A DNA stretch of 64,000 nt from positions 3,200,001 to 3,264,000 of the forward strand of contig CAVXRD010000002.1 in assembly GCA_963764165.1 (NCBI GenBank), given 5' to 3'. The stretch comes from an uncultured Verrucomicrobiae bacterium. Lineage in GTDB: Bacteria; Verrucomicrobiota; Verrucomicrobiia; Limisphaerales; Palsa-1400. Position numbers and translations under genes: made by a program. Below are positions 24,069 to 59,105 of this stretch, one piece after another. How positions within the stretch are numbered: the stretch's first letter is position 1; every line of letters starts with the position of its first letter. The notes beneath the pieces were generated by a model. The model made no database searches and was not told the origin of the DNA. It saw nothing but the letters and a program-made list of their open reading frames with translations.

Positions 24069-25169
24069 TTGATCTCTGTATAATATAGTGACAATATCAC
24101 CAAAGCTCGGCTTGCTTCCAGAAGGCAGTGACCAATTTGGGTCTGCGCCGCATCCGGCTCAGGGCCTTGCGCCCGCAATGACTCAACTTCGCCAGGTCGG
24201 CCGCGCAAAGATTGGGCAACTCGTGCTGCTTGAAGTAACCCCAGACATACTCGGTGGGATTGAGTTCGGGCGCATAGGCAGGCAGTCGTTCCACCCAGAT
24301 TTTGCCTTTCAGTTGATCCACATAGTCCCGCACCAGCCGGCTGCGGTGGATGGGACCACCGTCCCAAATGACCAGAAGCTTGCCCGGGATGTGGCGTTGC
24401 AGATGTTTCAAGAATTCGATCACCTGCGGGCCTTTGATGGTGCCGGGGTAAAGCCGGAAGTAAAAGTTCCAGACCGTCACCCCGGCGATGATCGAAAGCT
24501 TTTTCCAGTTGAAGTCGAACTGCAATACCGGGGTCTGGCCGCGCGGCGCCCAAGTGCGAACCCGGTGCGGCTTCTGGCTCAATCCGCTCTCGTCGATGAA
24601 AACCACGATTCGCCTCTCGCGGAGGGCTTTTTTTTAAGCTGCGGCCAGCGCACTTTGCGCCAGCGGGTGATCTCCCGCTCATGGCGCTGCCGAGCCTGGG
24701 TGGTGGGCCGCTGGCAGCTCCAACCCAGCTTTTGCAGAAGCCGGCAAACATGGTCCTCGTGGTATTGGACGCCCGTCAACCGTTGGATAACGGCGGCCAC
24801 CCGCCGGGTGGTCCAAAGCTGGGTGCCAAAGTCATGGGCTTCGGGTCCCTGTTTGAGGGCCCGTTCCAACTGGCGGAAGTTCTCGTCGGTCAGGCGGGGC
24901 TTGCGCCCGGCTCGCCCAGCCTTTTTGAGAGAGGGCGCGCCATGGTCCTGCCAAGCCTTATGCCAGCGGCTGACCGATTGCCGGTGGACGCCAACTTGGC
25001 GGGCGACCTCGGCCTGGCTCAAGCCTCGGTCGAAAAGTTTGACGGCTTTCATGCGCCGCCGTTCCAGTTGTGCAAACTGCGCCAAATCGCGTTTTACGCC
25101 TTTAGGATTTCCCATACCCAAAAATTAGCATAAAAACAATAATGTGTCACTATATTATGCAGAGATCAA
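24069..25169 (-). mobile_element. IS630-family insertion sequence (~1.1 kb)
   Basis: TIRs ttgatctctgtataatatagtgaca / tgtcactatattatgcagagatcaa. TA duplicated (CTAG target). Two ORFs joined at an A8 slippery run (24628-24635). Confidence 0.92.
24097..25121 (-). CDS. IS630 transposase: orfA HTH 24579-25121 plus orfB DDE 24097-24606, probable programmed frameshift
   Basis: VFIDESG, WDGGPIH, LPAYAPELNPTEYVW. HTH SQAEVARQVGVHRQSVSRW. Confidence 0.9.
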
Positions 25170-27473: not shown

Positions 27474-27604
27474 GGTAATCCGTCTGTCTTGTCCGGCTTG
27501 AATACCGATCCGGGGCGGCAACAGACTAGCCGCAAATGAACCAGGGAAATCCTCTTGGAGTGAATGAGCGGCGCAATAAATGCGCCGAAGCCCAAATTCA
27601 AATG

Positions 27605-27951
27605 TTAGAGGCCAGAGTCGAAGCTAGGGAAGGTTGCTTGGGGCCCGCGCTCGTGCGGCAATTGATTTGGCTGGGCTGCCGGCAGAAGGGTTCGGGGAAG
27701 GCCGACAAACCAGACCAAGCAAGTATCGGCGCGGCCAGAACTAGTGCTTCGGTTGATGGAAGAACCTGGGAGTGGGCAAACAGAGTAATCGCGCACTCAT
27801 GATCCGGAGCATCCGCATCCGAGTGAACCAGCCGGTGAAGGAATGAGCTTGCTGAAAGAAAACCTAAGACCAGCACCAAACCGACGCCAAGAACCGCTGC
27901 CGCACGGCGCAGGGCTTTAACAAGATTGAAATTCAGCGTCTGTAAATGCAA
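27605..27951 (-). pseudogene. His-rich leader peptide copy 1 (frameshifted; the other frame ends QLPHERGPQ)
   Basis: TM helix plus LHRLVHSDADAPDHECAITLFAH. One added base near 27690 would join it to LLPAAQPNQLPHERGPQA. Confidence 0.65.
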
Positions 27952-27961
27952 ATCATTTGCA
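27947..27961. promoter_or_regulatory. TGCAA-N5-TTGCA palindrome (candidate Fur/Zur-family operator)
   Basis: TGCAAatcatTTGCA overlaps the TTG start of leader copy 1. Confidence 0.6.
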
Positions 27962-28128
27962 ATTAGACACCATCTCTAGTGCTTTGCAAGCTGTTTTTTG
28001 GGAGATTGTTTGCCGCTTGGCTGACGACCAGGGTATTTCCCAAAAAAGCTCGAGTCTGTGTTTGACGGAGGGTGAATCCGTTCGCATTGGCAATCCGAGA
28101 ATCGAGATTAGCCGGCACTAACCTAGGC

Positions 28129-28902
28129 TCAGCCTTTGAGATGAAATCCCACCACAAGCAAGGCAATGACAAGAAATCCGATGCTGAAAAAGCCAAGAAC
28201 AATTCCCTTATGATGCTTCCAAATTTCCCCCAGAATTGCATGAATGCCGAGAAAGACAAATCCGCCCCCTGCGTGAGCCAAGGCCACGCCCAGCCAAAGT
28301 TCGGAAACTCCATGCAGAACGAATAGGCCGATCAGTCCTCCCAAAACAGTAGTCAATTCAACGGCTGCAACCATCAAGAGCATTCTGCTGGAAGTGAAGC
28401 CGGCGCCGAGCAGCAAGGCTCCGAGAGCCATGCCTTCCGGCGCCTTGTGAACGCATATTGCGAACATCATCGCCGCATCCAGCACATGGGCGTTCGTGCC
28501 TGTTTCCTCATGGCCCGCAGCCAAGGCCAATCCGTCGACCGCGCAATGAATTGCCAGCGCCACCGTCATGGCCAGCGCAATCTCGCCAAAATGGTGGGTG
28601 GTTGCCTCGTCAAAATGACTGGCCGCGCAGGCAGGGCAGACATGGAAGACATATTTGCTGATTAACGCGAAGAGGAAATAGCCGCTGGCGGCTGCTAGTG
28701 CGAACTGCCAGAGATGCAAGGATTCCAGGCACTCCGGCACGATGGCGAACACGGTCACGCCTAACAGCGTGCCCGCCCCAAGGCTGATCAGAGCGCAAAG
28801 CCGTTTGTGCGTTCCAGCTATGCACGCGCTGGCCACGCCACCAGCCAAGGCGATCAAAAATGCCGCCCCGGTGCGAATCAAGATGGCAGCAGCGGCGCTC
28901 AT
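28129..28902 (-). CDS. ZIP-family divalent metal transporter
   Basis: SLGAGTLLG, AIHCAVDG, CVHKAPEG, AGGGFVF. Loop contains HVCPAC. Confidence 0.85.
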   Translation of the reverse strand: MSAAAAILIRTGAAFLIALAGGVASACIAGTHKRLCALISLGAGTLLGVTVFAIVPECLESLHLWQFALAAASGYFLFALISKYVFHVCPACAASHFDEATTHHFGEIALAMTVALAIHCAVDGLALAAGHEETGTNAHVLDAAMMFAICVHKAPEGMALGALLLGAGFTSSRMLLMVAAVELTTVLGGLIGLFVLHGVSELWLGVALAHAGGGFVFLGIHAILGEIWKHHKGIVLGFFSIGFLVIALLVVGFHLKG

Positions 28903-29804
28903 GGGGTTTTGTTGCCCTTCAACCGTTCCTTCCAGGTCTGCACGGCTTGCGGGGTGGTAGAAACCACCTGTAACTGTTCCAGCCATCCGATTGCCTCATT
29001 GGTGTGATGTTCTGATTCCGCCAGGTGTGCGAGCGAGGCAAGAATTTCCTCGGCGATAAACTTGTTGTGGTCGCTGTCTTTGTCCGGCAAACGCGCCAGA
29101 TTGCGCAGTCCCGCTTCCCAGACGTTGCGCGCGCCAATGGGATTGTGGCGCGCCTCGGAAAAGAGACGGCCGAGGTCGAAGAGCAACTGCGGGTCGCCCG
29201 GATTCTCTTTGAGTCCCTCGCGCAGCTCTTGTTCGCTGTCGTCAATCTTGTCCATTCGGCGCAGCCAGTAAGCGGTCACCAGATAGACTTCCACCCGCTT
29301 TGGGTCCAGCTCCGTGGAGAGCTTCAGCCAGGGCAGGATTTCCCCCACTGAACTTTCGTCCTCTTTGCCGTTGGCGCCGCCTTCGATTAAGTGGGTATGC
29401 ACCGAGGGGTAAAATTGCCTGCCGAAGGCGTCGATCCAATTGCGCGGCGGACCAAGAAAAGTTGTCTCGTCACCGGTGTTCTTCCCTTTCATGGCCCCGG
29501 AATCTTCGGCGATGTGCGGCGTTTTGTACGATTGGCGATTGTCATAAATCGTCGGATACATGCCGCTGTGGAAATAGGCGTCCGCTTTCACAAAGAATTG
29601 ATCGGCGAATAGGCGTCGCGCATCTCCAATGGCGACGGCCATGAGGTTGGCGGAAGCGGCCCGGTTGCCGGGCCAATCCTGAAACCACAAGCTCAAATTA
29701 GCGGCAAGAGAAAAGCTGCCGACCAGCAGCAGCAAAAGCCAAAGTTCTCCTGCGAAACTTCTGCTGCTACGGTTGGCGTTGGAATGGAGAGTCATCGGCA
29801 TCAT
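28899..29804 (-). CDS. Membrane-anchored TPR protein
   Basis: N-terminal TM, KADAYFHSG, HTHL, EILPWLKLSTELDP..VEVYLVTAYWL..LREGLKENP. Confidence 0.7.
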   Translation of the reverse strand: MMPMTLHSNANRSSRSFAGELWLLLLLVGSFSLAANLSLWFQDWPGNRAASANLMAVAIGDARRLFADQFFVKADAYFHSGMYPTIYDNRQSYKTPHIAEDSGAMKGKNTGDETTFLGPPRNWIDAFGRQFYPSVHTHLIEGGANGKEDESSVGEILPWLKLSTELDPKRVEVYLVTAYWLRRMDKIDDSEQELREGLKENPGDPQLLFDLGRLFSEARHNPIGARNVWEAGLRNLARLPDKDSDHNKFIAEEILASLAHLAESEHHTNEAIGWLEQLQVVSTTPQAVQTWKERLKGNKTP

Positions 29805-29818
29805 CAATTCAGATCGTC

Positions 29819-30595
29819 CTAGTTCAAAGCACGGCGACGGAAAAGCATGCACGCCGCGAGCAGAAAGAAAGCACCGTAAACCGCGCCGTAAGCCGTCGCT
29901 TTCAAGCAGACCAGCCAGTGGATGGACGGCCAGTTATGTATCACCAGATCGCGCACGTCGAAGAATTCCAAATGGGGTATGACAAAAAAGAGCGCCATAA
30001 GCAGGCTCCGCGCCGGCTCGCCAGCCTGCGTGGCAACCTGGTCCAAATGGCGGCCCACCATCAGGATGAACGCCACCGCGACGAAGGAAATGGCGACGTT
30101 GGCCGATACTGCGCTGAACAGCAACGAACCGAGGATGCTCATCGCGATGATAACCCCCAGCATGAACCAATGCAGCCAGATAGCCTGGAAGTAATTTGCC
30201 AGCGGCCAGTGATGTTCTTTTGACATCGCCATTAATCCAAAGAAGGCATAAAAGGCCAGCAATGAGATTCCCGCCGCGATCCAGCAACCGAGGAACTTGC
30301 CCAACAGGACCTCGTTTCGTCCGATTGGTTTGGCTAGGAGGGGATAAATCGTGCGATTCTCGCGTTCCGTTGGAATTTGCCGCGCGGCCATCGTAATGGC
30401 GATCACCAGCGAAGAAATCCAGATGAGCAGCAGACATATCTCCTTCATGTAGCGGTCAATTTGACTGTCGTGGAAAAGATTGACCGAACCCATCATCAAT
30501 GTAATCACTGCGGTGACGACAAACAGCACGTAAAAATCCTTGCGGCGGATGCTTTCTTTTACAACGACGGAGGACAATGCCCAAATGTTTTTCAT
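29819..30595 (-). CDS. ABC-2 type permease
   Basis: KESIRRK, ERENRTIYPLLAKPIGRNEVLLGKFLG, six TM helices. Confidence 0.85.
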   Translation of the reverse strand: MKNIWALSSVVVKESIRRKDFYVLFVVTAVITLMMGSVNLFHDSQIDRYMKEICLLLIWISSLVIAITMAARQIPTERENRTIYPLLAKPIGRNEVLLGKFLGCWIAAGISLLAFYAFFGLMAMSKEHHWPLANYFQAIWLHWFMLGVIIAMSILGSLLFSAVSANVAISFVAVAFILMVGRHLDQVATQAGEPARSLLMALFFVIPHLEFFDVRDLVIHNWPSIHWLVCLKATAYGAVYGAFFLLAACMLFRRRALN

Positions 30596-31419
30596 ATTTG
30601 CTCGGGTGCGTGGTAGCCGATTACGCGCAGAAATACTTGTTCGAGATTGCACTCGTATTTTTTAACAAGAGCCTTGACGCTGCCCCCTTCCTTAAGCTCC
30701 CCTTCGTGAAGGATCGCCACACGATCGCAAACCGTTTCCACTTCACCCAATTCATGGGATGAAAAGAAAACGGTCTTGCCCTCGTTCTTGAGCCGCTGAA
30801 TGATTTCCCGGACTTTCATCCGGCCAATGGGATCAAGACCGCTTGTGGGTTCGTCGAGAATAAGCAAATCAGGATTGTTCACCAATGCCTGTGCCAGCCC
30901 AATTCGCTGCTGCATGCCCTTGGAGTAGGTCTTTATAAGGCGTTTTCGGGCGTGCTCCAAATCCACCAGTTTCAAAGCGGCATCCACCAGCCCATCCATC
31001 TTCGGACGCGGGATGCCGAAAATGGTGGCATATAGCCGGAGCAGTTCCTCCGCGCTCAGAAATTTGTAATAGTAAGTTAATTCCGGCAAATAGCCGATTC
31101 GCTGGCGCGCAATAGGTTCCCGCACGCTGGTGCCGAACAAGAAGGCATCGCCTCTGGTGGCGCGGTTGAATCCGAGCAAAACATTCATCGTCGTGGTCTT
31201 GCCGGCGCCGTTTGGGCCAAGGAATCCAAAAACCTCCCCCTGTCGCACTTTAAACGTGAGGTCTTTCACCGCCACTTTCACCTCTTGCCGCAATTCCCGG
31301 CTGGTAAATTCGACGCGAAGATGTTCGACGCGCAAAACCTCTTCCGACCTGGCGCACGGTGGTGCGGTGGATAAATTCTGCAAGTCGTTAGTCGCAAAAA
31401 ACTCTGTGGATTCTTTCAT
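30592..31419 (-). CDS. ABC transporter ATP-binding protein
   Basis: GPNGAGKTT, YSKGMQQR, LDEPTSGLDP, SSH. Confidence 0.92.
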   Translation of the reverse strand: MKESTEFFATNDLQNLSTAPPCARSEEVLRVEHLRVEFTSRELRQEVKVAVKDLTFKVRQGEVFGFLGPNGAGKTTTMNVLLGFNRATRGDAFLFGTSVREPIARQRIGYLPELTYYYKFLSAEELLRLYATIFGIPRPKMDGLVDAALKLVDLEHARKRLIKTYSKGMQQRIGLAQALVNNPDLLILDEPTSGLDPIGRMKVREIIQRLKNEGKTVFFSSHELGEVETVCDRVAILHEGELKEGGSVKALVKKYECNLEQVFLRVIGYHAPEQI

Positions 31420-31566
31420 AAGCTATCGGACGATTCTTCGCGGCCGCAACCGGGCCATTCAAAGATATCGACTATTCTAAGTCTGCTTTTGACTGAGATG
31501 CTTCAAATCGCCGCGCACTGTGGGCGGCAGCTTTGAATGGATGCCGAAATCTGGCAAAAACCTGGA

Positions 31567-31899
31567 CTAAGCGAAGAGGACGGGAGGAGCGCGGCCGGGC
31601 AGGAGTAAATAGTCGCGCGAAACGAAGATTGCATGTTGGAAAGCATTTTCAGCCGCAAAGGCAAGAAAGATCGGAATCGCGGCAACAGGGCTTCCATCCG
31701 TTAAATTAACTTTTCCGTGCGCGAATGCGGTGACAGCGCAATCGTGATGCGCGTTGTCGGCGTCCGAATGAATGAGTCGATGAAGGCCAGGATCGCTCGC
31801 CAGCGCCCCACAGAATAAAATTCCAAGCACCAGCGCGGCCGTTAGCCACCGGCCAATCAGGCCATCCGTCCGAAAAAGGTGTTTCGCGTCTAATTGCAA
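31567..31899 (-). CDS. His-rich leader peptide copy 2 with C-terminal RAPP arrest motif (DUF2946/CruR-like architecture)
   Basis: TM helix plus LHRLIHSDADNAHHDCAVTAFAHG...DYLLLPGRAPPVLFA*. Confidence 0.8.
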   Translation of the reverse strand: MQLDAKHLFRTDGLIGRWLTAALVLGILFCGALASDPGLHRLIHSDADNAHHDCAVTAFAHGKVNLTDGSPVAAIPIFLAFAAENAFQHAIFVSRDYLLLPGRAPPVLFA

Positions 31900-31913
31900 C
31901 TGATTTGCAATTA
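31891..31913. promoter_or_regulatory. Perfect palindrome TAATTGCAA-N5-TTGCAATTA (candidate Fur/Zur-family operator)
   Basis: 9-bp arms; overlaps the start of leader copy 2. Confidence 0.65.
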
Positions 31914-31988
31914 AACATGGAAGGCCTTTTCACGCAAGCCATTTATCGCGTTTCAACAAGCGCCCCGCAAGTTCAGGCGGGAGGGCAG

Positions 31989-32772
31989 CTAAAAGGGCGC
32001 GATGACTTTTTCTCCGTCCATGCGATAAATCCCAGCCAAACAGCCATTTTCCTCAATCGGGCCGACGTGCAACACCCCGGCCACGGTGATGGGTTGATCC
32101 ATCACAGGTTTGACTCCCTTCCCGTTGAGTTCAACGGTAATCCACTCGTTGACTTTGGGAGGCACGCCATAGCAGCACATGGATTGATTGCGCATGAGCA
32201 AAAATTCGACCGCCAGGCTCCCATTCATTCGGTACTGGCAGGAGAAATCCCCGGATGACGACCTTTTTATCGCTGAGGGCCGACACTTTCGCCGGGATCT
32301 GCGCATTTGCTTGCCTGTAGAGGGCCGCCGGGTCACCGGTTCCATCCGTCATCCCTTTGGTCATCACAAAACCGAAGCAGGCCAGGGTGTCAAAGGTCAC
32401 ATCCATGTATCCCGGAACTTCCTGCACAGCGCTGGAAAGGCTGCTCACCGAAGGCAAATTTGTCTTGGCGAGATCGGCAGCCGATCCCTTCGTTCCCGAT
32501 GGCATGGGGCCGGTCCAGTCGTTGGTCTGCGTCGACTCGATGAACTCGACCGCCACCATCCTTCTTTGGGTCGATGCGGGCTTTGGATGTTTTCGTTTCG
32601 TTTGATTATCGGCGGCCTTATTGGATGGCGAAACGTTTTCATCAACAACGGGTGATTCAATCGGCTCGCCGCGAATTACTGATGCAGAGGCAGTTTCGGG
32701 CGACTGCGGATTCCTCCCGCAGGATGTCACGGCGATCAGAGCCAGCACGGGCCAAAAATTGCGAAACGTCAT
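31989..32772 (-). pseudogene. DUF3299-family lipoprotein, frameshifted near 32232
   Basis: Lipobox VTSC, KVVIRGFLLPV, then shifted frame EFLLMRNQSMCCYGVPPKVNEWI..GVLHVG..GIYRMDG. Confidence 0.75.
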
Positions 32773-32947
32773 CAACATCTCAGCAGTTTGACTATGCATT
32801 CGCAACGGGTATTCACCTGGCCCTCACGGGCACAAGTTCCTCAAGACAGGCTCTACCGGGGGCTCTCGATCACCGTGCCGGGGACCGTCTGCCAATTGCG
32901 AAGGAACTAATGGACCTGGCGGAGGATGGCGCAGCGGCTGCCTTTAA

Positions 32948-32986
32948 TGGAAATGATTTGCATTTCTTTATTGCAAACGGTTTGCG
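32948..32986. promoter_or_regulatory. Tandem imperfect TGCAA-N5-TTGCA boxes in a divergent promoter region
   Basis: TGGAAatgatTTGCA (32948) and TGCAAacggtTTGCG (32972), between the DUF3299 and COG0523 genes. Confidence 0.55.
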
Positions 32987-33183
32987 TTTATGAGAATCGT
33001 TGGCGCGTGAATTTGACTCGCGTTTCATTTTTGCAGGCACTGGTGGCATTCAGCGCTTTCCATGCCGGCTTTTTTGGCCCCGTCGCGGTGGGACACCGGA
33101 GGCGGGTGCTCTTGGGATTTGAGCTTGCCTGCCTGCGGCGCAACCGAAGGCAATTCATCGACGCTTAAGCGGAAAAAACCAAT

Positions 33184-34239
33184 TTGAATTCTGTGTCAAC
33201 ATCCAAGGGAATCGTGCCGACGAGGATTCTAGTGCTTTTGACCGGCTTTCTCGGCGCTGGCAAGACCACTTTTCTGAAGAATTTGACCGTCGAATTGCAG
33301 CGCCGCGGGCTTTTGCCGCATGTCATTTTGAACGATTACGAAAACGCAAGTGTGGACGCGACTTCTGTCCGGCAGGTTACCCGCGATGTGAAAACCGTTG
33401 GCGGCACTTGCGTCTGCTGCGAATCGCGGGATGCGCTTTTTGACAGTTTGGAAGGGCAGCCTGCCGGGATGCGTGACGTCGTCCTGGTGGAAACCAACGG
33501 CACCACCGATCCGCTGGCCTTGTTGGATAATCTGGCGTGTGACCCGCGCACCCGTTCTTTTCGCGTGAAGCAAATCGCGCTGGCCAATGCGCAACGCTGG
33601 GGCAAACGGAGGAGCCACCAGTCGCTGGAACGGCAGCAAGTGCTCACGGCAAGCCATCTTTTTATTTCGTATCGCGACGTTGCGCAGCCAGGAGATTTTG
33701 AGGAAACTCTGGCCGCCATTCAGAAAATAAATCCGCGCGTGGCACTCACGGATCCAACGGCCTTTGCCGCTGAAATTGAAAGAGCGTTAAGCTGCCAGGA
33801 GACTCAAATATCGCCGACTCTGGGTCCGTCCGCCTCGAACCGCAATTCCGCGCCACCCATATTCGGATTCAAAATGATTCCGTTCGCAAAATTTTCACAT
33901 AATCAGGCGCACGCATTTTGCTCGGCGCAAGTTGACATTCCGCCGCTGGTTGAAGAAGCGGCCGTGGCTGCCTGGCTGGATTCGCTGCCGCCAGAAGTAT
34001 TGCGCGTCAAGGGTGTGACGCAACTTCCGTCAGCGCCCGGCCAGGTTTTATGTTTTCAAAAAGTCGAGGACAAGGCCCAGATGAAGCTGTTTCCGCTGCC
34101 GGAAGGTTTTGAGTGGAGTCCCAGGGCAGTGTTGATCGGCTCCTGGCTGCCGACGGAAGATTTTCAAGCTCATGCGGACACACATTTGCCCCTGGCGCTG
34201 CGAACGGGCAACGCGTTGACCTCCTTCATGCCTAACTAA
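33184..34239 (+). CDS. COG0523/CobW-family G3E metallochaperone GTPase
   Basis: LTGFLGAGKTT, GGTCVCC, VETNG..DP, C-terminal LPPEVLRVKG. Confidence 0.88.
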   Translation: MNSVSTSKGIVPTRILVLLTGFLGAGKTTFLKNLTVELQRRGLLPHVILNDYENASVDATSVRQVTRDVKTVGGTCVCCESRDALFDSLEGQPAGMRDVVLVETNGTTDPLALLDNLACDPRTRSFRVKQIALANAQRWGKRRSHQSLERQQVLTASHLFISYRDVAQPGDFEETLAAIQKINPRVALTDPTAFAAEIERALSCQETQISPTLGPSASNRNSAPPIFGFKMIPFAKFSHNQAHAFCSAQVDIPPLVEEAAVAAWLDSLPPEVLRVKGVTQLPSAPGQVLCFQKVEDKAQMKLFPLPEGFEWSPRAVLIGSWLPTEDFQAHADTHLPLALRTGNALTSFMPN

Positions 34240-34257
34240 TGATGTCCGGCGCATAAT

Positions 34258-34710
34258 TTGAACCCACTTCGACAAATCAATGTCATGATGGCTGTCTCCT
34301 GGGTCAGCTTGATCGTGTGCTTGCCGGTGTATCTTTATATCTCTCACTCGGCCTTGGGCACCGTTCTCATCGGCGACGAGAAAACCGATGCCCAAAACGT
34401 CCGCGAGATTGCGCTCAATGTCGACGTGCACGCCCTGCAGGAGCAAGCCGCCTTTCTGGTCCGGGAGGGGCACGCCAAAAGCAAATTGTCCATGTTTTTG
34501 TGCAATCTTGCGCTGATCGGGTTATTCGTCGCCATGGCTTGCTCCACCGTCGTCATCCTTCAAATTCGCAAATTAAAGAAGCATACGAATTCCGCCCAAG
34601 CCATTCCGACAGCCTGCCCTATCACGTTGCTCCAATTTGAAACGAAGCGCTCCATGAACGATGCAAGCTCGTTAAACTCAGGTGTATTGCCCGGCGCGGA
34701 ACAGAAATGA
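34258..34710 (+). CDS. Hypothetical membrane protein (2 TM)
   Basis: Two hydrophobic segments; sits between cobW and merC-like genes in the operon. Confidence 0.5.
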   Translation: MNPLRQINVMMAVSWVSLIVCLPVYLYISHSALGTVLIGDEKTDAQNVREIALNVDVHALQEQAAFLVREGHAKSKLSMFLCNLALIGLFVAMACSTVVILQIRKLKKHTNSAQAIPTACPITLLQFETKRSMNDASSLNSGVLPGAEQK

Positions 34711-35159
34711 AATTTGATGCTTCTGACTCGAGCGCCCCATCGCTGCTGAACCGCGCCGACCGAATCGGCTCAGTGCTGTCATCGGCGTGCGCGATCCATT
34801 GCATGTGCATGCCCGCGCTCATAGGTTTGCTGCCGGTGATTGGATTATCCTTTCTCGGCAGCCATAAGTTCGAGCAGCTTGCGTGCGTCTCCATGGTCTT
34901 GCTCGCCGCTGCGTGTGTATGGTCAGGCTGCCGCGTCCATCGGCGCTGGGGACTGCTCGTGCTTTTGTGCGCGGGCGCGGCGGTCGTGCTTTACACTCAG
35001 TTTGGCGGACCTTTGGAAGAAACTGAATCCCGGACCGATTGGCACGAAGCCATAGCGATGTTCGTTGGCGGCGCGCTGATTGCCACATCTCATTTGATAA
35101 ACCTTAAGTTGCGCGCCCGCTGCCACTGCGCACATTGTGAAGAGACTTTCAAACAATAA
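34707..35159 (+). CDS. MerC-domain membrane protein
   Basis: DRIGSVLSSACAIHCMCMP, four TM helices, SHLIN, C-terminal CHCAHC. Confidence 0.8.
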   Translation: MKFDASDSSAPSLLNRADRIGSVLSSACAIHCMCMPALIGLLPVIGLSFLGSHKFEQLACVSMVLLAAACVWSGCRVHRRWGLLVLLCAGAAVVLYTQFGGPLEETESRTDWHEAIAMFVGGALIATSHLINLKLRARCHCAHCEETFKQ

Positions 35160-35241
35160 AATTCGCGGGCGCGCGAAGGTGTTGAAGCGCGCATTCATTT
35201 AGATGTTCTGGGAGGCTTCCAAGCAACCCACACCCACCCCT

Positions 35242-36675
35242 TTAATGTCCGGTGTTCCAGTCCGTGAACGGGTCCCAAGGTGGCAGCAATAATGTTTTCT
35301 GCTTGCTTGCCGCCAGCAGTCCCTCCGGCACAAAGCGGCGGTCGATGATGACTTGAAAGACGTGCCGGTCAAACCAGCCGCTGTCGATGGTGAACCACCC
35401 CTTGTCGCCAGCCTTTTCCCCCCAGGAATTTTCCACCTTCCACTTGACAGGCCTGCCCTTCTGCACGTCCACCCCCGTAATGACCATGGCGTGGTCGGGA
35501 GTGCCGTCGTCGTATGCCAGCGTGTCCGACTTGCTCATCGTAAAATCCATGCCGAACAGATCCTGCTTGTCCTGGATGCCCTGGAGCCAAAGGCCCTTCT
35601 TTTTGTCGCCTTCCGCGCCGGAGTTGGCCCCAAACCAAACCGGCTGATCGGCCAGAATGGATTTGAGTGTCATGTCCACCATTTCCTCCATGGAAATATT
35701 GACTGCCTCCATATTTGTCTGGTCGGCCATGTTCCGTTCCCAAGCCCATTCCAGGTGGGCATGCAAGGGCTGGCTTGGGTAATTCACAAAGCTCGCGTAG
35801 CGGCTCAAATCGGTGTCCAGGAATTTCCGGCGGAACGATTGCGGCGTGTAGCTCTCGAGCTCGGTAACTTTGCCGTCCTTGTTTTCGTAGCGCCATTCGA
35901 AGCTTTCCGGCGGTTGTCCCAGGCAGAGCACCAGGATTTTGTAAACATCCTTTAGCGCCCCCATTTTCCAATCACGCAGATCGTGTTCCTGGGCGCCCGC
36001 GAATCTCGGCTGGCGAAGCTCAACCACCGCCTTGCGCAGGCGAGTGGACAGCAGCGCGACCATCTCGTCTGTGTGAGACGCCGCGTAGTCGTCCGGCATG
36101 ATAGATTCGGGCACCGCTCCATATTTCCCGATCAAAGCTCGCACGTAGTTCCAATTGCCGCCATCACTGATCAGGTGCTGAAGAAACGTGTCCATGCGGC
36201 GGCTGTGAATTTCCTCATGACGCAAGGCAATCGCTAGATCAAGCGAGCGGTTGGCTGATTCCAGCTTTTGATAAAATTGCTCATAAGCCTGCGAGAGCAT
36301 GAAATCCTTCATCTTCTCTTTGGCGATCACTCCCGGCCGCAGCATGTTCAACCCGGCGAACAGCCAGCAGCGCCCCGATTTGTCCTGGTCCGCGATCGAC
36401 CCGGCCTCCTTGATTTCGTGGTTGAACAGAGAGTCGGTCCGATTTTCCACGTCTGGATTGACAACAAGGGAATAGACGCTATTGCTCGCCAGCGCATCCC
36501 GGACGGCCCGCATTTGAGGTGTCATGGGAACCGCGTCTGCGAGTGTCTTCAGCATCTCGGGCGAGAGCGCCGCCGCGGCTGACGGGGCGTCCCCGGTTGC
36601 AGGTTCGTATTGCGCCAGCACGGGAATGGAGGCCAAAAATCCGCAAACCAAAAGAGACTTAACAAGTGTTTTCAT
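35242..36675 (-). CDS. pepC: Exported cysteine aminopeptidase C (bleomycin hydrolase, C1B)
   Basis: Signal peptide, DQDKSGRCWLFA, DHAM, WKVENSWG, LPPWDP. Confidence 0.9.
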   Translation of the reverse strand: MKTLVKSLLVCGFLASIPVLAQYEPATGDAPSAAAALSPEMLKTLADAVPMTPQMRAVRDALASNSVYSLVVNPDVENRTDSLFNHEIKEAGSIADQDKSGRCWLFAGLNMLRPGVIAKEKMKDFMLSQAYEQFYQKLESANRSLDLAIALRHEEIHSRRMDTFLQHLISDGGNWNYVRALIGKYGAVPESIMPDDYAASHTDEMVALLSTRLRKAVVELRQPRFAGAQEHDLRDWKMGALKDVYKILVLCLGQPPESFEWRYENKDGKVTELESYTPQSFRRKFLDTDLSRYASFVNYPSQPLHAHLEWAWERNMADQTNMEAVNISMEEMVDMTLKSILADQPVWFGANSGAEGDKKKGLWLQGIQDKQDLFGMDFTMSKSDTLAYDDGTPDHAMVITGVDVQKGRPVKWKVENSWGEKAGDKGWFTIDSGWFDRHVFQVIIDRRFVPEGLLAASKQKTLLLPPWDPFTDWNTGH

Positions 36676-36945
36676 CGCTTATCAAACGCGTCGGCAAACT
36701 TGCGCCATAGATTACTCTGTGTCAATTCTGGCCTAAAAGGCGAAGACTAACACCTTGGCATTCCGCTCCCGGTCTGCGCGCGAAGTCGCGGGCTGTCAAC
36801 AAGACGGACTTGAGGTTTGCTGTTTCAAGCGAAACGGGGCGCCCTTGGAAAAGTATCCGTAACTCCGCCTGTGCGAGGTCAATTTTTCAAAATTGAATTT
36901 ACTCGTTGCATTTCAAAGCGCGTTCTTGTTAAATGCAAATGGATT

Positions 36946-37275
36946 GTGATAGCCACGACGATTCAAGCTCTGCGAAAGCCGGTAGCGAGGTGGATATGTT
37001 CCACCATGATGCTGGTCGTTGTTGTGTTCTGCGGCATCGCTTCGAGCAGCCAATCTCTGCACCGGTTTATTCACCCCGATGCCAACTCCCCGGTTCATGA
37101 GTGCGGCATCACACTGTTCAGTCACGGCATGGTCGACGCCACGGCAGGAACGCCGGAGCTTGCGGTGCCCATCTTTCAGCAGTTCACTCTCTGCACTTTC
37201 TTTAGCGAGATCGCTTTCTACCCAGCGGACTATGTCTTGCTGCCCGGTCGCGCCCCTCCCATAGCTGCTGCCTAA
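36946..37275 (+). CDS. His-rich leader peptide copy 3 with C-terminal RAPP arrest motif
   Basis: TM helix plus LHRFIHPDANSPVHECGITLFSHG...DYVLLPGRAPPIAAA*. GTG start at 36946 is inferred and overlaps the degenerate box TGCAAatggaTTGTG. Confidence 0.8.
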   Translation: MIATTIQALRKPVARWICSTMMLVVVVFCGIASSSQSLHRFIHPDANSPVHECGITLFSHGMVDATAGTPELAVPIFQQFTLCTFFSEIAFYPADYVLLPGRAPPIAAA

Positions 37276-37428
37276 TCCCGGATTTCTCCGGGTTCATTCC
37301 GTTGGTTTCAATTCGCCATCGCGCATCGCTCTGGCCCTTTGATTCCGGTTATTCCCTGTAGATCATTTTTCGTAGAGCCGTACTTGGCTGCTCTTGAGGC
37401 AGCGGGAGCACGGCCGGGCAGCAATTAA

Positions 37429-38136
37429 ATGAAAGAATCACAAGAAACGCTCCTGCAAATAGCGGGATTGCAGAAAACGTTTGCGGCGCCTGACGGCGAA
37501 CGGCACCGCATTGTCGACATCGAGGAATTCTCTCTTGGCAATGGCGAGCAAGTAGCGCTTGCGGGAGAAAGCGGCTCGGGCAAGACGACATTTCTGCATT
37601 TGATAGCCGGGATACTAAAGCCAGACTCCGGAAGTATTCGACTGGCTGGCCGAGAGATGTCGACATTAAGCGAGGCGCAGCGAGATCGGCTTCGGGCCAC
37701 GACCATCGGTTACATATTTCAAACATTCAACTTGCTCCAAGGCTATACGTGTTTGGAAAATGTTTTGCTGGGTATGTCATTCGGACCTGGCGCGGACCGC
37801 GCCTTCGCGGCAGAACTGCTGAATCGCGTGGGTCTGGGAAATCGGCTTCGCCATTATCCCCGGCAGTTGTCCACAGGGCAGCAGCAAAGGGTCGCTGTGG
37901 CGCGAGCGCTGGCCAATCGCCCCAAACTCGCGCTGGCCGACGAACCCACGGGCAATCTCGATCACAAGAATGCGCGCGAGGCCCTGGCTCTGATCCGGGC
38001 CGTTTGCAAGGAAAATGGGGCCGCCCTTCTTTTGGTAAGCCACGACCGCGACGTCTTGAGCCAATTCGAGACCGTCAAATCACTGGAACAAATCAATCGC
38101 GCCGCACAAACGAAGGGGGGGGGACAAAAAGTATGA
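37429..38136 (+). CDS. ABC ATPase (LolD/MacB-like; Zrg-type)
   Basis: GESGSGKTT, LSTGQQQRVAVARAL, ADEPTGNLD, VSHD. Confidence 0.92.
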   Translation: MKESQETLLQIAGLQKTFAAPDGERHRIVDIEEFSLGNGEQVALAGESGSGKTTFLHLIAGILKPDSGSIRLAGREMSTLSEAQRDRLRATTIGYIFQTFNLLQGYTCLENVLLGMSFGPGADRAFAAELLNRVGLGNRLRHYPRQLSTGQQQRVAVARALANRPKLALADEPTGNLDHKNAREALALIRAVCKENGAALLLVSHDRDVLSQFETVKSLEQINRAAQTKGGGQKV

Positions 38137-39341
38137 CACTTTGGCTCATTGTTTTTCGCAGTTTGCGCCAGCACGCGCTGTCCACCTTGATTACGGCGTT
38201 CTCGATATCGCTGGCCGGAGGACTGCTCATGTCGGTATGGACGGTGAAGGACCAGGCGCGCGCCACTTTTACAGGGATTAACGGCGGTTTCGACGCCGTT
38301 TTGGGAGCGCGCGGGTCAAAATTACAGCTTGTTTTGAACTCGATATTTCATTTGGAAGCTTCGCCCGGAAACGTGACCGCGCCGGATTATTTGGACATTA
38401 AGAAAAATCCGAATGTGGCCTTGGCGATACCCATTGCCGTGGGTGACAACTACAAAGGCTATCGGCTGGTTGGGACTATACCGGAGATGTTCGAGAAAGT
38501 GGAATACGCTCCCGGCAGGCATTATGAAGTCGAACCGGGGGGGCATCTGTTTGATCCGACGCGGCGAGAAGCGGTGGCCGGAAGTTTTGTGGCGCAGAAA
38601 ATGGGCCTGAAAGTGGGTGACACATTTCATCCCTACCACGGCCTGATATTCAACGAGCGCGACCAGCACGCGGAAACATACGTGGTCGTGGGCATCTTGA
38701 AGCCATCGAATACGCCAAGCGACCGTGTGATTTGGATTCCGCTCGAAGGAATTCAAAAAATGAAGGGCCACGATCCAAAAGCTGCAACGGACGTAAGCGC
38801 GGAATTGGTGAAGCTCAAGGGCGAAGGCGCAGTCGGTTTTCGAATGGATATGATGTACAACAAGCAGGGCAATCGTTTAACTTTCGCATGGCCGATTGCC
38901 AGCACCATTGCGGAATTGTTCGATAAAATCGGATGGTTTGACAAAGTGCTGCAAATCGTAGCCTACCTAGTCGCCCTGGTTGCCACCGCGTCAATTCTAG
39001 CCAGCATCTACAATTCAATGAACGAACGTCGCCGCGAAATTGCCATTCTTCGCGCCTTGGGAGCGCGGCGGCACACGATTTTTAGCGCCATTCTGCTGGA
39101 ATCGGCCGCTATTTCTACTTTGGGAATGGCCGTGGGCTTTGTGGTTTATCTGGGCATCATGTCGGCAGCGGCCAAAATCATTCGCACGCAAACCGGCATT
39201 GTTCTGGACCCTTGGCAATTCAATACCGTGATGCTGTGGGCTCCCGCGGTTCTTATCGGCCTTGGGGCACTGGCGGGAATCGTTCCGGCCACAAAAGCGT
39301 ATCAAACCGATGTAGCCACTCACCTCGCGCCAACGTCATGA
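38133..39341 (+). CDS. FtsX/MacB-family ABC permease (Zrg-type)
   Basis: DAVLGARGSKLQLVLNSIFH, IPIAVGDNYKGYRLVGT, HPYHG, ERRREIAILRALGA. Confidence 0.88.
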   Translation: MTLWLIVFRSLRQHALSTLITAFSISLAGGLLMSVWTVKDQARATFTGINGGFDAVLGARGSKLQLVLNSIFHLEASPGNVTAPDYLDIKKNPNVALAIPIAVGDNYKGYRLVGTIPEMFEKVEYAPGRHYEVEPGGHLFDPTRREAVAGSFVAQKMGLKVGDTFHPYHGLIFNERDQHAETYVVVGILKPSNTPSDRVIWIPLEGIQKMKGHDPKAATDVSAELVKLKGEGAVGFRMDMMYNKQGNRLTFAWPIASTIAELFDKIGWFDKVLQIVAYLVALVATASILASIYNSMNERRREIAILRALGARRHTIFSAILLESAAISTLGMAVGFVVYLGIMSAAAKIIRTQTGIVLDPWQFNTVMLWAPAVLIGLGALAGIVPATKAYQTDVATHLAPTS

Positions 39342-39823
39342 AAGCGCTTTTATCCATTATTGCTTTGGGAGCCGCAGCATTCATTGCCGGGTGCGGCGAA
39401 CATAAAGAAGCGACCTCCGCCAACGCCGCGCCGCATCTGCATGTGGACGTGCCGCCTCATGGTGGGACGCCTGTGCCGCTGGAAGACGATTATCAGATCG
39501 AATTGGTCTTGGACCCGTCGCTCCGGACGCTCAATGCCTACTTTCTGGATGGCGAGATGGAGAATTTCGTGCGCATAGCCCCGCCTTCCTTTGATCTCAA
39601 AGTGACGCTGACAAATCGGCAGGAAGTTCTTCATTTCTCGGCTGTTCCCAATTCCGCCACTGGGGAAAAGGTGGGTAGCACATCGTTGTTTGAGGCCAAA
39701 GCCGACTGGTTGACAACCAATGTGACCTTTAACGCCGTTTTGCCGGAAATAAATGTGGAGGGGACTGTCTATACCAACGTTGCCTTCAATTTTCCCAAAG
39801 GGGTCGAGGAACAAACAAAATAG
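39338..39823 (+). CDS. His-containing lipoprotein (candidate periplasmic metal chaperone)
   Basis: Lipobox FIAGC, HLHVDVPPHGG. Confidence 0.7.
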   Translation: MKALLSIIALGAAAFIAGCGEHKEATSANAAPHLHVDVPPHGGTPVPLEDDYQIELVLDPSLRTLNAYFLDGEMENFVRIAPPSFDLKVTLTNRQEVLHFSAVPNSATGEKVGSTSLFEAKADWLTTNVTFNAVLPEINVEGTVYTNVAFNFPKGVEEQTK

Positions 39824-39845
39824 AAACTAACAAAAGGATATCAAA

Positions 39846-40424
39846 ATGATACGAATGCGAACTGCGATAGTTCTGGCGGCTGCAACGGCGCTCGGCGCTT
39901 GGAATGCGTCAACCGGATTGGCTCAGGCTGTCAAAGGAGAAGCGGGCCTTCCGGCGTCGAGTCAGGGTGTTTCGCCGCCAGGCTTGACCAACCCGCCGTC
40001 CGCCAAAGCTGAAAAAACGATCGACGCCGATTTTGATTTGCTCGCCGCGTTTTCCTTTGACCTGCCCGACAGTCCGATCACCAATGACGTCTTAAAGGCG
40101 AGCATCGAAAAACATATCCCGGACTCCATCAAAAAACTGGACGGCAAGATGGTTAAGGTGACTGGGTTTATGATGGCTACCAAAGAGGACGCTGGAAGGG
40201 TCACCCAGTTTTTGGTCACGCGCAACCAGCCTTCTTGCTGCTACAGCGGCGCCACCGCGCTTAACGAGTTTGTTGACGTCAAGATGGCCGGAAAAGGAGT
40301 CCATGAATCCAGGGACGAGCCAATCGCCGTTGAAGGGAAATTGCACGTTGGACTTGTCATCGACGGGGGCTATGTCTCCGGCGTGTATACCATGGAAGGA
40401 CTGAGGCTGGTGCCGGTGCAGTAA
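39846..40424 (+). CDS. DUF3299-family exported protein
   Basis: IKKLDGKMVKVTGFM, FLVTRNQPSCCY, GKLHVG, VYTME. Confidence 0.78.
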   Translation: MIRMRTAIVLAAATALGAWNASTGLAQAVKGEAGLPASSQGVSPPGLTNPPSAKAEKTIDADFDLLAAFSFDLPDSPITNDVLKASIEKHIPDSIKKLDGKMVKVTGFMMATKEDAGRVTQFLVTRNQPSCCYSGATALNEFVDVKMAGKGVHESRDEPIAVEGKLHVGLVIDGGYVSGVYTMEGLRLVPVQ

Positions 40425-40448
40425 ATTGGGTTGCGTGGAAAAGGCACG

Positions 40449-41105
40449 ATGAAAGGCCAGAGAAAAATGCGCCTGCGCCAGTTGGAGTCGCGCGAGAATT
40501 GTTTCGGCGTCGCGAAGGTAATTCTAATTGTCGCCGGTGTTTCTGCGTTTGCTTGGTGCATAGTTACAACCCCCATGCCGGTGTCTCCTGCGCGAATGGT
40601 GGCGGCCCAACGCGCCAGAACATGCACCCGTTCGGTTGGCAAGGTTTCAGAAGCGGGAAAAGAACCGAAAACCCGAGTCGTCTATCCGCCATACCTCACG
40701 GTGTCCTTTTCCGAACTCTCGTCGTATCCGTTCACAGTCACCGATATGATGACAAATTCAAACCCGGCGTCTGCGGCGGTGCTGGACCAGATTCCAGAAC
40801 GAATCCGCGGCATGTCGCGCCAAAAGGTGGCGGTCACAGGGTTCATGCTGCCAGTGCAATTAAAGGGAAACCTCGCAACAGAATTTCTAATACTGGCGAA
40901 CCGCTCCGCCTGCTGTTACGGCATTGCGCCCGACATCAATCAATGGATCATCGCCCGCGCAAAAAACGGAGGCGTCCAACCTTTGATGGATGTGCCGGTC
41001 ACGGCGTTGGGAACATTTCACGTCGGCGAGCAGCGTGAGAATGGGGAGTTGGCTGGGATATATGAACTTGACTGCGACAAAATCATCGCCGGCGATCAAT
41101 TCTAA
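40449..41105 (+). CDS. DUF3299-family membrane-anchored protein
   Basis: KVAVTGFMLPV, EFLILANRSACCYG..P.INQWI, GIYEL. Start uncertain. Confidence 0.78.
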   Translation: MKGQRKMRLRQLESRENCFGVAKVILIVAGVSAFAWCIVTTPMPVSPARMVAAQRARTCTRSVGKVSEAGKEPKTRVVYPPYLTVSFSELSSYPFTVTDMMTNSNPASAAVLDQIPERIRGMSRQKVAVTGFMLPVQLKGNLATEFLILANRSACCYGIAPDINQWIIARAKNGGVQPLMDVPVTALGTFHVGEQRENGELAGIYELDCDKIIAGDQF

Positions 41106-41292: not shown

Positions 41293-41751
41293 TCAACTGC
41301 ACTTGGCGCAGCGGCCTTCGATTTGCAAAAAATGGCTCTCCACGCTTGCATTGAGGTGCTTTCTGACAAATTTGGCCACCTCTTCAATCAAACACAACTT
41401 GACCTCGTCGACCTTGCCGCATTGCCGGCAAATGAAATGGTGATGATGGCCCGCTTCGATGTCGCGGCAGATGAAGTACCTCAACTCCCGCTCGTCATTT
41501 GCGGCAGTCAAGAGGATCCCGCAATGGGCCAGATTCTCAAGGATTCTATAAACTGTGGGGAGCCCGAGGCCCTTGAATTTCCGCTGCAACTTGGCCTGAA
41601 CCTCAAACGGGTCGAGAATAGTTCCGCGCTCGAGAAACAATTCGAGCACGGCCCGCACTTTGGGAGTGACCCGGTTGCCCCGCCTCTTCAGGCGGGCGAG
41701 ATAAATGTCGATGCTCAGATGGATCTTTTTCACGCTGTTCCCATGGTGCAT
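41293..41751 (-). CDS. Fur-family metalloregulator (Zur-like)
   Basis: GLPTVYRIL, HHHHFICRQCG, GRCAKC. Confidence 0.88.
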   Translation of the reverse strand: MHHGNSVKKIHLSIDIYLARLKRRGNRVTPKVRAVLELFLERGTILDPFEVQAKLQRKFKGLGLPTVYRILENLAHCGILLTAANDERELRYFICRDIEAGHHHHFICRQCGKVDEVKLCLIEEVAKFVRKHLNASVESHFLQIEGRCAKCS

Positions 41752-42028
41752 TCGGCTGCCGGCGAAGGCAAACCTGATCTCCCCGCCACCCCGTCGATGG
41801 ATTCTGCCGCCATTTGGCCGAACGAGACAGTGCATCGAAGCGTTGGCGCTGTTGCCCTTTTTACCGCTGATGTTCAATTGCTGGCCGTCCGCGGACCTCC
41901 GCTATTCCGCTCCGCTAGCCGAATATTCGATTGACCTTTGGTTGGCCCGACGCGGTGTCGCGGTCAACGGACCGAAGAAAAAAACGTTTGTTCCAGAGAA
42001 ATTCACTTAGAAATCCGAATTGTAATTT

Positions 42029-46666: not shown

Positions 46667-46684
46667 ATGTAGCTACAGCTACAT
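46667..46684. promoter_or_regulatory. MntR-type operator
   Basis: Perfect palindrome ATGTAGC-taca-GCTACAT (TAGC-N4-GCTA core, as in the enterobacterial MntR box), between the TBDT and mntR. Confidence 0.75.
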
Positions 46685-46732
46685 CATATGGCCTCGACTC
46701 GTCAATCCATTTTGCGCAGGATAAAATAAAAT

Positions 46733-47209
46733 ATGACCAGACCGTCCAAAGTCTCGCCTGGCCGGGAACAAAGTCGCGGCACGCCTCGCTCGGCGGAAAC
46801 CCAGGCGGCCGCCCTGCGCCGGACCCGTCTCGAACACGCCGCTGAAACGGCGCAGGATTACGCCGAGGCAATCGCCGATCTTTGCGCCCTTCAGGGGGAG
46901 GCCCGAGCCGTGGATTTGGCCCGACGCCTCGGCGTGTCTCATGTGACGGTCATTCGAACCATCGCCCGCCTGCAACGGGATGGGTACGTCTCCACACGTC
47001 CGTATCGTTCCATATTTCTGACACAGAAGGGATCCACCCTGGCGGAGGAATCCCGGCGCCGCCACGACATTGTGCTGGCGTTTCTGCGTTCACTCGGCGT
47101 CCCGGAGGAAGTCGCCCAAACTGACGCGGAGGGCATTGAACACCACGTAAGCCCGGCGACTCTCGCCGCGTTCAAACACCATGCCGCGTCGATGGAGAAG
47201 CGGCGCTAA
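46733..47209 (+). CDS. mntR: Manganese-sensing regulator MntR (DtxR family)
   Basis: AQDYAEAI, ARAVDLARRLGVSHVTV, RPYRSIFLT, DAEGIEHHVS. Confidence 0.9.
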   Translation: MTRPSKVSPGREQSRGTPRSAETQAAALRRTRLEHAAETAQDYAEAIADLCALQGEARAVDLARRLGVSHVTVIRTIARLQRDGYVSTRPYRSIFLTQKGSTLAEESRRRHDIVLAFLRSLGVPEEVAQTDAEGIEHHVSPATLAAFKHHAASMEKRR

Positions 47210-54538: not shown

Positions 54539-55361
54539 GGGCCTGTTAACACTAACGTAACGCCTCCACGATGAGCGCGAGGACGACGAATCCGGAGTAC
54601 AACGCATCCAATTTGTCGAAGCGACTGAAGACTCGGCGGTAGCTTTTGAGTCGGCGAAAAAGCCGTTCAATCTCATTGCGGCGTCGGTAAAGGGTTTGGT
54701 CATACTCCCACGGATTTAAGCGTCGGGGGTTAGGAGGAACCACTGGAGCGTAGCCCAATTCCCGCGCCTGTTGCAGAGTCTCGTCCCCTTCATAGGCGCT
54801 GTCCATGATGAGTGGAAGCCCTGCCGGAACCGGCCCGCCCGCCTGCAAAAGCTCGCGTCCTTGCGGCGCGTCCCCCGCCTGGCCGGGGGAAAGCTTGAGC
54901 ATTAAGGCGCACTGGGCATTCGCGGCAACCAGATGAATTTTGGTGGTGCAACCGCCTCGGGAGCGCCCGATGGCCTGTGGGCCGTTTTTTTTAGCGCCCC
55001 GGTGCCGTCGGGGTGAACCTTGATCGTCGTGCTGTCCAAGCAGACTTGCTCGATCCGGATCGCCAGGATTTGCTCCTGCTGGAGCCGGGCGAAGACTCGA
55101 TCCAGCACGCCCGCTTTGCTCCAGCGGTTCATGCGGGTGTAGATCGTATGCCAGTTGCCAAAATGTTTTGGCAGGCCGCGCCATTTGCACCCATGCTCCA
55201 CCACATAGAGCAGGGCGTTGAGAAGTTGCAGATTGGTCATGCTCACGTTGCCGCGCTGCCGCGGCAGACAATCAGCAACCCGCTGATATTGACTCTCTGT
55301 AAGCTCCACCCAGCCATTTTGCCTTGTCGCCTATAAAATGTCAATTAGTGTTAACAGGCCC
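54539..55361 (-). mobile_element. IS5-family insertion sequence (823 bp)
   Basis: 17-bp TIRs gggcctgttaacactaa / ttagtgttaacaggccc. TA duplication (CTAG target). A8 run at 54985-54992. Confidence 0.93.
54552..55309 (-). CDS. IS5-family transposase in two frames (probable programmed frameshift)
   Basis: GCKWRGLPKHFGNWHTIYTR, LDSTTIKVH / GRSRGG.TTKIH, YRRRNEIERLF. Confidence 0.9.
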
Positions 55362-58847: not shown

Positions 58848-59030
58848 AACTGTCACGCTTTCAACATAACAGCCCTGATTCCGAACACTTAACGAGCAGT
58901 GGGCGCCTACGCGCCGAGACGTCAAGCCTACGCCCTGGCTAACGCGCCAGGTGTGCGTTTTGGTGTGCGTTTGGCCATTTTGGCCCCCTTTTTGGCCTTT
59001 TCCGGGGAAAACTCCGAAGGAGTTCCGAGT

Positions 59031-59054
59031 TGGAGGCGAGGGTCGGAATCGAAC
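59031..59054 (-). other. att core: isolated tRNA 3' end (T-arm half to CCA; tRNA-Cys-like)
   Basis: Minus strand GTTCGATTCCGACCCTCGCCTCCA. No 5' tRNA half upstream; ~180 bp from the integrase start. Confidence 0.75.
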
Positions 59055-59105
59055 GAGGAACCCAAACCGTTCCGAGCCTAACACACTCTGTTTCAAGGCA
59101 TACTG

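Follow-up and report, generated by a model that had tools for sequence, protein, structure and literature searches.

Leader genes with a His/Cys motif and a C-terminal RAPP head metal-transport genes in a verrucomicrobial genome and may respond to zinc

We analyzed a window of 64,000 nucleotides (nt) from an uncultured Verrucomicrobiae bacterium (GenBank assembly GCA_963764165.1, contig CAVXRD010000002.1, positions 3,200,001 to 3,264,000), in which three small leader genes of about 110 codons, here called copies 1 to 3, lie among genes for metal transport. They share a hydrophobic N-terminal helix (best 19-residue Kyte–Doolittle mean 1.9–2.3) and the motif LHRxxHxDAxxxxHxCxxTxFxH. Copies 2 and 3 end in DYxLLPGRAPP followed by four codons, and the gene of an ATP-binding cassette (ABC) ATPase starts after a spacer of 147 nt (copy 2) or 153 nt (copy 3). 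An AlphaFold model of the leader is helical (predicted local distance difference test, pLDDT, 80) and places a helix at residues 14–35; a Foldseek search of the PDB with this model gave no match. An earlier note, made from the letters of this DNA alone, had described the three reading frames, and our coordinates, hydropathy values and model agree with its account of the membrane helix, the shared motif, the ending of copies 2 and 3 and the ATPase that comes next. The copies in the window are:

27598..27951, minus strand: copy 1, a broken leader gene that keeps the transmembrane (TM) helix and the His/Cys motif (profile match E 3e-20)
31567..31899, minus strand: copy 2, an intact leader of 110 amino acids (aa) with a TTG start and RAPP at 31593-31582
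36946..37275, plus strand: copy 3, an intact leader of 109 aa with a GTG start and RAPP at 37249-37260
41790..41934, plus strand: copy 5, a remnant with the C-terminal half (RGPP end) and spacer only (profile E 0.56)

R[AG]PP close to a stop codon occurs 330 times in the six frames of the 7 Mb genome, yet the family profile picks out four full copies (E about 1e-20 or better) and one remnant, which is why we regard the leader set as beyond chance. The fourth full copy, found by this genome-wide search on the same contig, is intact, ends in RDPP and stands 134 nt upstream of a TonB receptor gene; the remnant precedes the TonB receptor gene at 42029-44242. Copy 1 comes after a ZIP gene, has an operator of its own and is followed by an unrelated gene, for which we observed no match in 30 genomes of the family and only a weak match to DUF6161. 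Gene order rules out copy 1 as the head of the ZIP gene. The proposal that all three copies head metal-uptake operons thus stands for copies 2 and 3, but copy 1 heads none now. Its RGPQ (27649-27638) does lie off the main frame, owing to a frame shift in the linker, but DNA alignment with intact relatives revealed one base missing in the linker and one in the proline codons, so that two single-base losses and not one separate it from the family ending. A check for assembly error yielded two frame changes in 44 loci and 18,231 aligned residues, one of them a query artefact and the other an insertion sequence (IS)-like element, and this check missed the known split of a DUF3299 gene. Copies 1 and 5 are probably dead genes. 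The hairpin reported behind copy 3 exists, but at 37277-37292, one base from where it had been placed.

An exhaustive search (E 0.001 or better, clusters at 50% identity) showed that the leaders belong to a verrucomicrobial family of 2,251 clusters. Matches were observed in 28 of the 31 genomes of the source organism's own family and in 40 of 401 genomes sampled across the phylum, concentrated in a few families; homologs carry labels that give this phylum as Verrucomicrobiota. We counted motifs in the best 150 of the 2,251 cluster representatives; the seed of the ranking profile was pre-filtered for the motif (29 of 31 matches kept), so these figures lean high. The family core is HxxxH-x7-HxCxxT with R[AG]PP 44–45 residues downstream. 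HxxxH-x7-HxC is present in 149 representatives and Thr at Cys+3 in 139, with CxxC in a single one, which bears out the earlier view that CxxT replaces CxxC. The proposed signature of four His and one Cys has to be reduced to three His at family level, as the fourth is kept in 72 representatives only. The terminal motif is RAPP in 85 and RGPP in 52 (137 in all), CGPP in 5, RDPP in 3, RSPP in 2 and absent in 3; its distance from Cys+3 is 44–45 residues in 145 of 147 cases and 45 in copies 2 and 3. The sequence of the linker shows little conservation, in contrast to its length and to the terminal motif. RAPP and RGPP are about 7- to 10-fold depleted in verrucomicrobial proteomes (source data of PMC12992588). 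In the mutagenesis of ApdA and ApdP, G, D or S at the second position keeps arrest (PMC12992588); the second-position variants of our family are these same residues, which favours an arrest function.

To see which genes follow the leaders we collected 73 locus matches and assessed 70 of them, three from the source genome, after dropping one that lacked the motif and two whose stretch contained no downstream gene. In 69 of the 70 loci the leader heads a transport gene class, in line with the expectation that homologs found with a profile hidden Markov model keep the His motif and a RAPP-type end in a conserved position ahead of metal-transport genes. TonB receptors follow in 49 loci, 26 of them resembling the gene at 42029 and 23 being ZnuD-like; the remaining loci carry an unnamed outer-membrane protein (8), a resistance-nodulation-division (RND) efflux operon (6), an ABC-2 ATPase (3), a LolD-like ATPase (3) or an unclassified gene (1). 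The idea that the leaders control ABC/ZIP operons rather than a TonB-dependent transporter is therefore not supported, with 49 receptors against 6 ABC ATPases and with copy 4 heading a receptor. ZnuD was the best family for all three receptors tested out of the 23, with 243–278 bits on fragments against a cut-off of 950. For the one outer-membrane-protein operon tested out of eight, the best matches were AztC/ZnuA and AztB, all below cut-off. The genes around copies 2 and 3 are:

28129..31419, minus strand: copy 2 operon, with ABC ATPase, ABC-2 permease, tetratricopeptide repeat (TPR) protein and ZIP transporter
31989..32805, minus strand: DUF3299 gene split by a frameshift, a single frame in the relatives L062 and L063
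33184-34239, plus strand: gene of a CobW/COG0523-type GTPase
37429..41105, plus strand: Zrg-type operon behind copy 3

The gene order of the copy 2 operon is kept in L066, and L062 and L063 keep it as a block. The copy 3 operon encodes a LolD-like ATPase, an FtsX/MacB permease, a His-containing exported protein and two DUF3299 proteins, and its permease is homologous to those of operons ordered DUF2796, ATPase, permease, DUF3299. ZrgA (PF10986) gave no match to the His-containing protein. This Zrg-type ATPase/permease/DUF3299 arrangement is headed by copy 3 only in the window and by the leader in 3 of the 70 loci. The six efflux-linked paralogs (L065, L067, L072, L076, L078 and L080, with CusA/CzcA confirmed for L067) have CxxC in four cases and a second hydrophobic helix in all six, compared to one second helix in the 26 loci of the main receptor class; they are candidates for the opposite polarity.

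One of the closest known counterparts is CruR (Bp2923, DUF2946/PF11162) of Bordetella pertussis (PMC9426467). Like CruR, copies 2 and 3 are first in a metal-uptake operon (copy 1 is not), carry an export signal, here a predicted N-terminal TM helix, and end in RAPP before a long spacer. In the family a TonB receptor is often next, and the 44–45 residues from metal motif to RAPP agree with the 45 plus or minus 1–2 reported for CruR. Unlike CruR, which has CxxC, copper-related neighbours and acts via Rho, the family has CxxT with three upstream His, zinc-type neighbours and an operator over the start codon, and copy 3 is predicted to act on translation initiation. The match to PF11162 that had been suggested as a check remained below the cut-off of 23.7 bits for copy 2 (18.2 bits) and was absent for copies 1 and 3; weak matches occurred in 1 of 29 and 5 of 72 members (best E 8.5e-4), and no canonical DUF2946 gene over the cut-off was found in the source genome. 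CutF of Rhodobacter capsulatus stalls with copper present and turns on detoxification (PMC9973294; bioRxiv 10.1101/2025.02.05.636593). The family resembles it as an exported leader with periplasmic metal sensing and a stalled ribosome that opens RNA structure at the next start, all of which is predicted here, but the import-linked copies would need opposite polarity and the occluding helix of copy 3 is built from the arrest codons themselves. His-only CutF-like clusters are reported ahead of HupE/UreJ genes (PMC9973294), unlike our family. With SecM, ApdA and ApdP (PMC12992588) the family shares the arrest motif, its tolerated variants and an N-terminal localisation signal, whereas those leaders lack a metal motif and precede sec genes. 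The family probably acts like CruR and CutF; it is likely a distant branch of the same superfamily, outside DUF2946 and DUF2607 by Pfam score or motif.

DUF2607 is the family of ZrgD, the nearest named cluster to our family in the ESM Atlas. The Vibrio zrg operon (DUF2796-ATPase-permease-DUF3299) is a Zur-repressed zinc importer (PMC9817125, PMC9820375), and in Vibrio its first gene, zrgD, turned out to encode a leader rich in His that ends in R[AS]PP and is preceded by a Zur box. This layout was present in seven Vibrio-family loci; all five leaders tested pass DUF2607 and both downstream proteins tested pass ZrgA. Like ZrgD (DUF2607/PF10795), our leaders have about 100 aa, one TM helix, a His-rich region with a single Cys, an R[AS]PP-like end and a Fur-family box upstream, and copy 3 has the same ATPase/permease/DUF3299 system downstream. 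The distance from Cys to Arg is 44 residues in ZrgD and 47–48 in the family, and the leader is followed by zrgA there and by the ATPase gene at copy 3. Profile comparison with hhalign was weak (probability 19.6%, E 0.0012), and PF10795 (cut-off 24 bits) matched none of copies 1–3 and, at E 0.034, a single one of 29 members. A search with the published Vibrio Zur site in its exact form gave no match, whereas one with its 17-nt core did. In three loci from SAR86 and the Colwellia family (L104, L119, L135), CxxC and RAPP leaders without a DUF2946 or DUF2607 match stand right behind a Zur-type box and ahead of outer-membrane proteins.

We then considered how stalling could act on the next gene. 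Copy 3 contains the following element:

37237..37424, plus strand: predicted long-range helix in which 37237-37250 pairs with 37411-37424

This helix of 14 bp (13 Watson–Crick pairs and one G-U; z -3.2; -40 kcal/mol) joins the LLPGR codons to a segment that stops 5 nt short of the ATPase start (37429), and it is stronger than expected from synonymous recoding (p 0.02). Since pairing with the arrest codons would mask the initiation region of the next gene, stalling would turn that gene on. With a ribosome placed over the arrest codons, opening of the next start costs 12.7 kcal/mol less at copy 3 and 4.1 and 4.6 kcal/mol less in its two orthologous loci. Across the 70 loci, one of which had a mis-picked start codon (L029), such coverage lowers the opening energy by more than 2 kcal/mol in 36, compared to 14–16 in five shuffles, and in Vibrio four of five zrgD loci change in the same direction as copy 3. 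From these models, switching on of the next gene by stalling appears as a family trend that is not universal. For copy 2 the RNA test showed no switch at the initiation site. In 56 of the 70 loci C-skew is higher over the last 44 codons than over the gene that follows, and the genome encodes Rho, but we give the skew little weight as a sign of Rho loading because Pro, Ala and Ser codons explain part of it. An Rfam scan of 26000-62500 gave no match.

The start codons of copies 1–3 are overlapped by a palindrome, TGCAAAT-N-ATTTGCA. A matrix built from six sites of other genomes located these operators, listed together with a candidate regulator gene:

27944..27964: operator of copy 1, over the predicted -10 element and start codon (score 32.6, the genome's best site)
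31892..31912: operator at the copy 2 start (score 30.2)
32945..32989: two tandem operators in the gap between the DUF3299 and CobW genes (scores 23.9 and 23.7)
36931..36951: degenerate operator at the copy 3 start (score 17.6, genome rank 17, weak alone)
41293..41751, minus strand: Fur-family regulator gene, a candidate reader of the operator

Four of the genome's five top sites fall in this island, while a shuffled 3-Mb control reached a score of 21.7 once. The profile search detected no family leader in the DUF3299-CobW gap (32829-33170, about 350 nt). In three relatives the same box heads operons of ZIP and Fur-family genes, from which we infer a Zur-like regulator; the additional layer of Fur-family repression proposed earlier thus fits the operator over each start codon, with the regulator being putative. 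In 53 of the 70 loci an in-frame start follows a TTG(A/C) hexamer by 33–39 nt, and the first His usually comes some 37 codons later; starts at 35–38 nt are enriched in frame (53, compared to 10 out of frame), and copies 1–3, which start 38, 38 and 40 nt after the hexamer, are consistent with the family pattern. This spacing suggests leaderless or near-leaderless mRNA. Its in-frame enrichment also rules out that the start codons were miscalled because they lie inside the operator. Within the metal island we also noticed genes for a MerC-domain membrane protein (34707-35159, plus strand) and a C1-family aminopeptidase (35242-36675, minus strand); the latter is transcribed away from copy 3, whose operator it may share.

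Taken together, we give slightly better than even chances to the view that these are leader genes whose membrane-anchored His/Cys peptide stalls the ribosome at the C-terminal RAPP and switches on transport genes when zinc is scarce. Arrest-based control as such is very probable and metal sensing by the leader is likely. Because the nameable neighbours are ZnuD-like receptors, ZnuA/B-like and ZIP genes, CobW and the Zrg-type operon, and because the operator is shared with ZIP-fur operons, the metal is probably zinc, and gene context makes zinc the most likely candidate; the earlier note had named Zn or another metal. In such a scheme a Zur-like Fur-family repressor on the start-codon operator would shut off transcription when zinc is ample, and the mRNA would otherwise start at or near the start codon. 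The N-terminal helix would enter the Sec translocon, so that HxxxH-x7-HxC would be periplasmic at the time of the pause at RAPP, 48 residues past the Cys. A stretch of 48 residues from Cys to Arg corresponds approximately to the length that spans exit tunnel and translocon. The paused ribosome over the arrest codons of copy 3 is predicted to expose the site where translation of the Zrg-type ATPase begins. If CruR is a guide, binding of metal would then fold or pull the chain, the pause would end, the helix would re-form and the operon would be off. Copy 2 would more likely act via Rho-dependent termination, like CruR.

Several observations weigh against this reading. Ribosome coverage acts in the opposite direction at copy 2 (-2.6 kcal/mol) and copy 4 (-3.2 kcal/mol), in 3 of the 70 loci altogether, and only 13 of the 70 beat synonymous recoding. 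RND efflux pumps follow in six loci, hence the family is not purely one of uptake; the commonest receptor class (26 of 70) is without a characterised ligand, and the loci are related to each other, so that our counts overstate. The source genome lacks an ortholog of the Fur-family protein that accompanies the box in relatives (best identity 29%), and the local Fur protein tested, one of two, remained under all NCBIfam cut-offs with no Zur model passed. A generic scan did not flag the proposed promoters, and its 6 promoter and 21 terminator sites compare with 7 and 22 expected. Zrg-type operons in plasmid records of Pseudomonas, Sulfitobacter and Thermus have no such leader (0 of 3), and a zrgD knockout had no effect on growth under zinc chelation (cited in PMC9820375), a result compatible with a cis element only on condition that the inhibitory arm was deleted too.

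The same arrest switch could answer to Co, Ni, Cu or Mn, or to a metal that varies by subfamily. A NicO transporter near one locus, weak CbtB matches in 5 of 72 members, the uncharacterised main receptor class, CxxC in four of six efflux-linked paralogs and the reported link of His-only CutF-like clusters to Ni/Co genes (PMC9973294) all point that way. We nevertheless hold this to be unlikely, as the neighbours that can be named are mostly of zinc type and no copper chaperone or oxidase occurs among the classified neighbour classes of the 70 loci. If instead Sec pulling ended the arrest and matched transporter synthesis to export capacity, as in a secretion monitor of the SecM/ApdP type, the His and Cys residues would be structural. 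RAPP peptides with signal sequences are established monitors (PMC12992588), the downstream products are mostly exported or membrane proteins and the RNA layout of copy 3 is SecM-like; yet His3-Cys is near-invariant at a fixed distance from RAPP, the neighbours are solely metal-transport genes and the first gene behind copies 2 and 3 encodes a cytoplasmic ATPase, which makes a monitor quite improbable. Least probable, to the point of being remote, is a small metal-binding membrane protein, a chaperone or accessory subunit, that acts in trans with RAPP incidental. It would account for the fairly confident helical model and for one leader serving different transporter types, but not for a poorly conserved linker whose length and terminal motif are kept, for the gene's place as first in the unit before a long spacer, or for a motif that verrucomicrobial proteomes otherwise avoid (PMC12992588 source data).

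The class of RAPP leaders is known and predicted in print to be widespread (PMC9973294; PMC12992588 source data). The Fig. 4 source data of PMC12992588 list DUF2607 leaders, DUF2796 as an enriched downstream class (137 vs 2) and at least two predicted RAPP leaders resembling this verrucomicrobial family, and the CutF-like clusters of PMC9973294 may already contain it; zinc does not occur in the main text of PMC12992588, nor do verrucomicrobial names in three supplements of PMC9426467. Among metals, copper is the only one for which sensing by an arrest peptide has been shown (CruR, CutF). Literature searches, limited to a restricted body of literature, found no zinc-sensing arrest peptide, and no riboswitch is known for Cu or Zn according to PMC9426467. 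A zinc-responsive leader on top of Zur-type repression would, if true, give a periplasmic, translational reading of zinc and supply the missing post-transcriptional zinc sensor. The 14-bp helix makes copy 3 a clean construct for testing, and the import CxxT and export CxxC leaders form natural pairs for asking how metal binding alters stalling. The RAPP, RGPP, RDPP, CGPP and HAPP endings are a further natural comparison set: CGPP or HAPP (the latter in 3 of the 70 loci) stands at the conserved distance in L036-L038, L042, L043, L045, L049, L050, L052, L054, L055, L059 and L074, members without the Arg reported irreplaceable in ApcA, ApdA and ApdP. A wider and more tentative idea, against which the balance leans, is a family of two polarities, in which CxxT (His3-Cys) leaders hold importers on until zinc ends the stall, two-helix CxxC leaders turn RND exporters on, Vibrio ZrgD would work alike, and members from other verrucomicrobial families would dispense with the Arg and arrest at CGPP or HAPP.

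Elsewhere in the window, a HupE/UreJ domain is fused to a TonB-dependent receptor (59419-62082, plus strand), likely a Ni/Co importer, with neither a RAPP leader nor an Rfam riboswitch upstream. The palindrome ATGTAGC-N4-GCTACAT lies within 46668-46733, between a TonB receptor gene (46668-44389, minus strand) and the gene of a DtxR/MntR-family regulator (46733-47209, plus strand); it presumably resembles an MntR box and is likely a separate Mn/Fe operator. The flanks of the island (24097-25121, 54552-55309, 57780-59096 and 62510-63385) carry what we take, from the translations, to be two pairs of IS-like transposases, as well as an integrase-like gene and an assembly ATPase of the filamentous-phage type, which hints that the region is mobile or has been rearranged.

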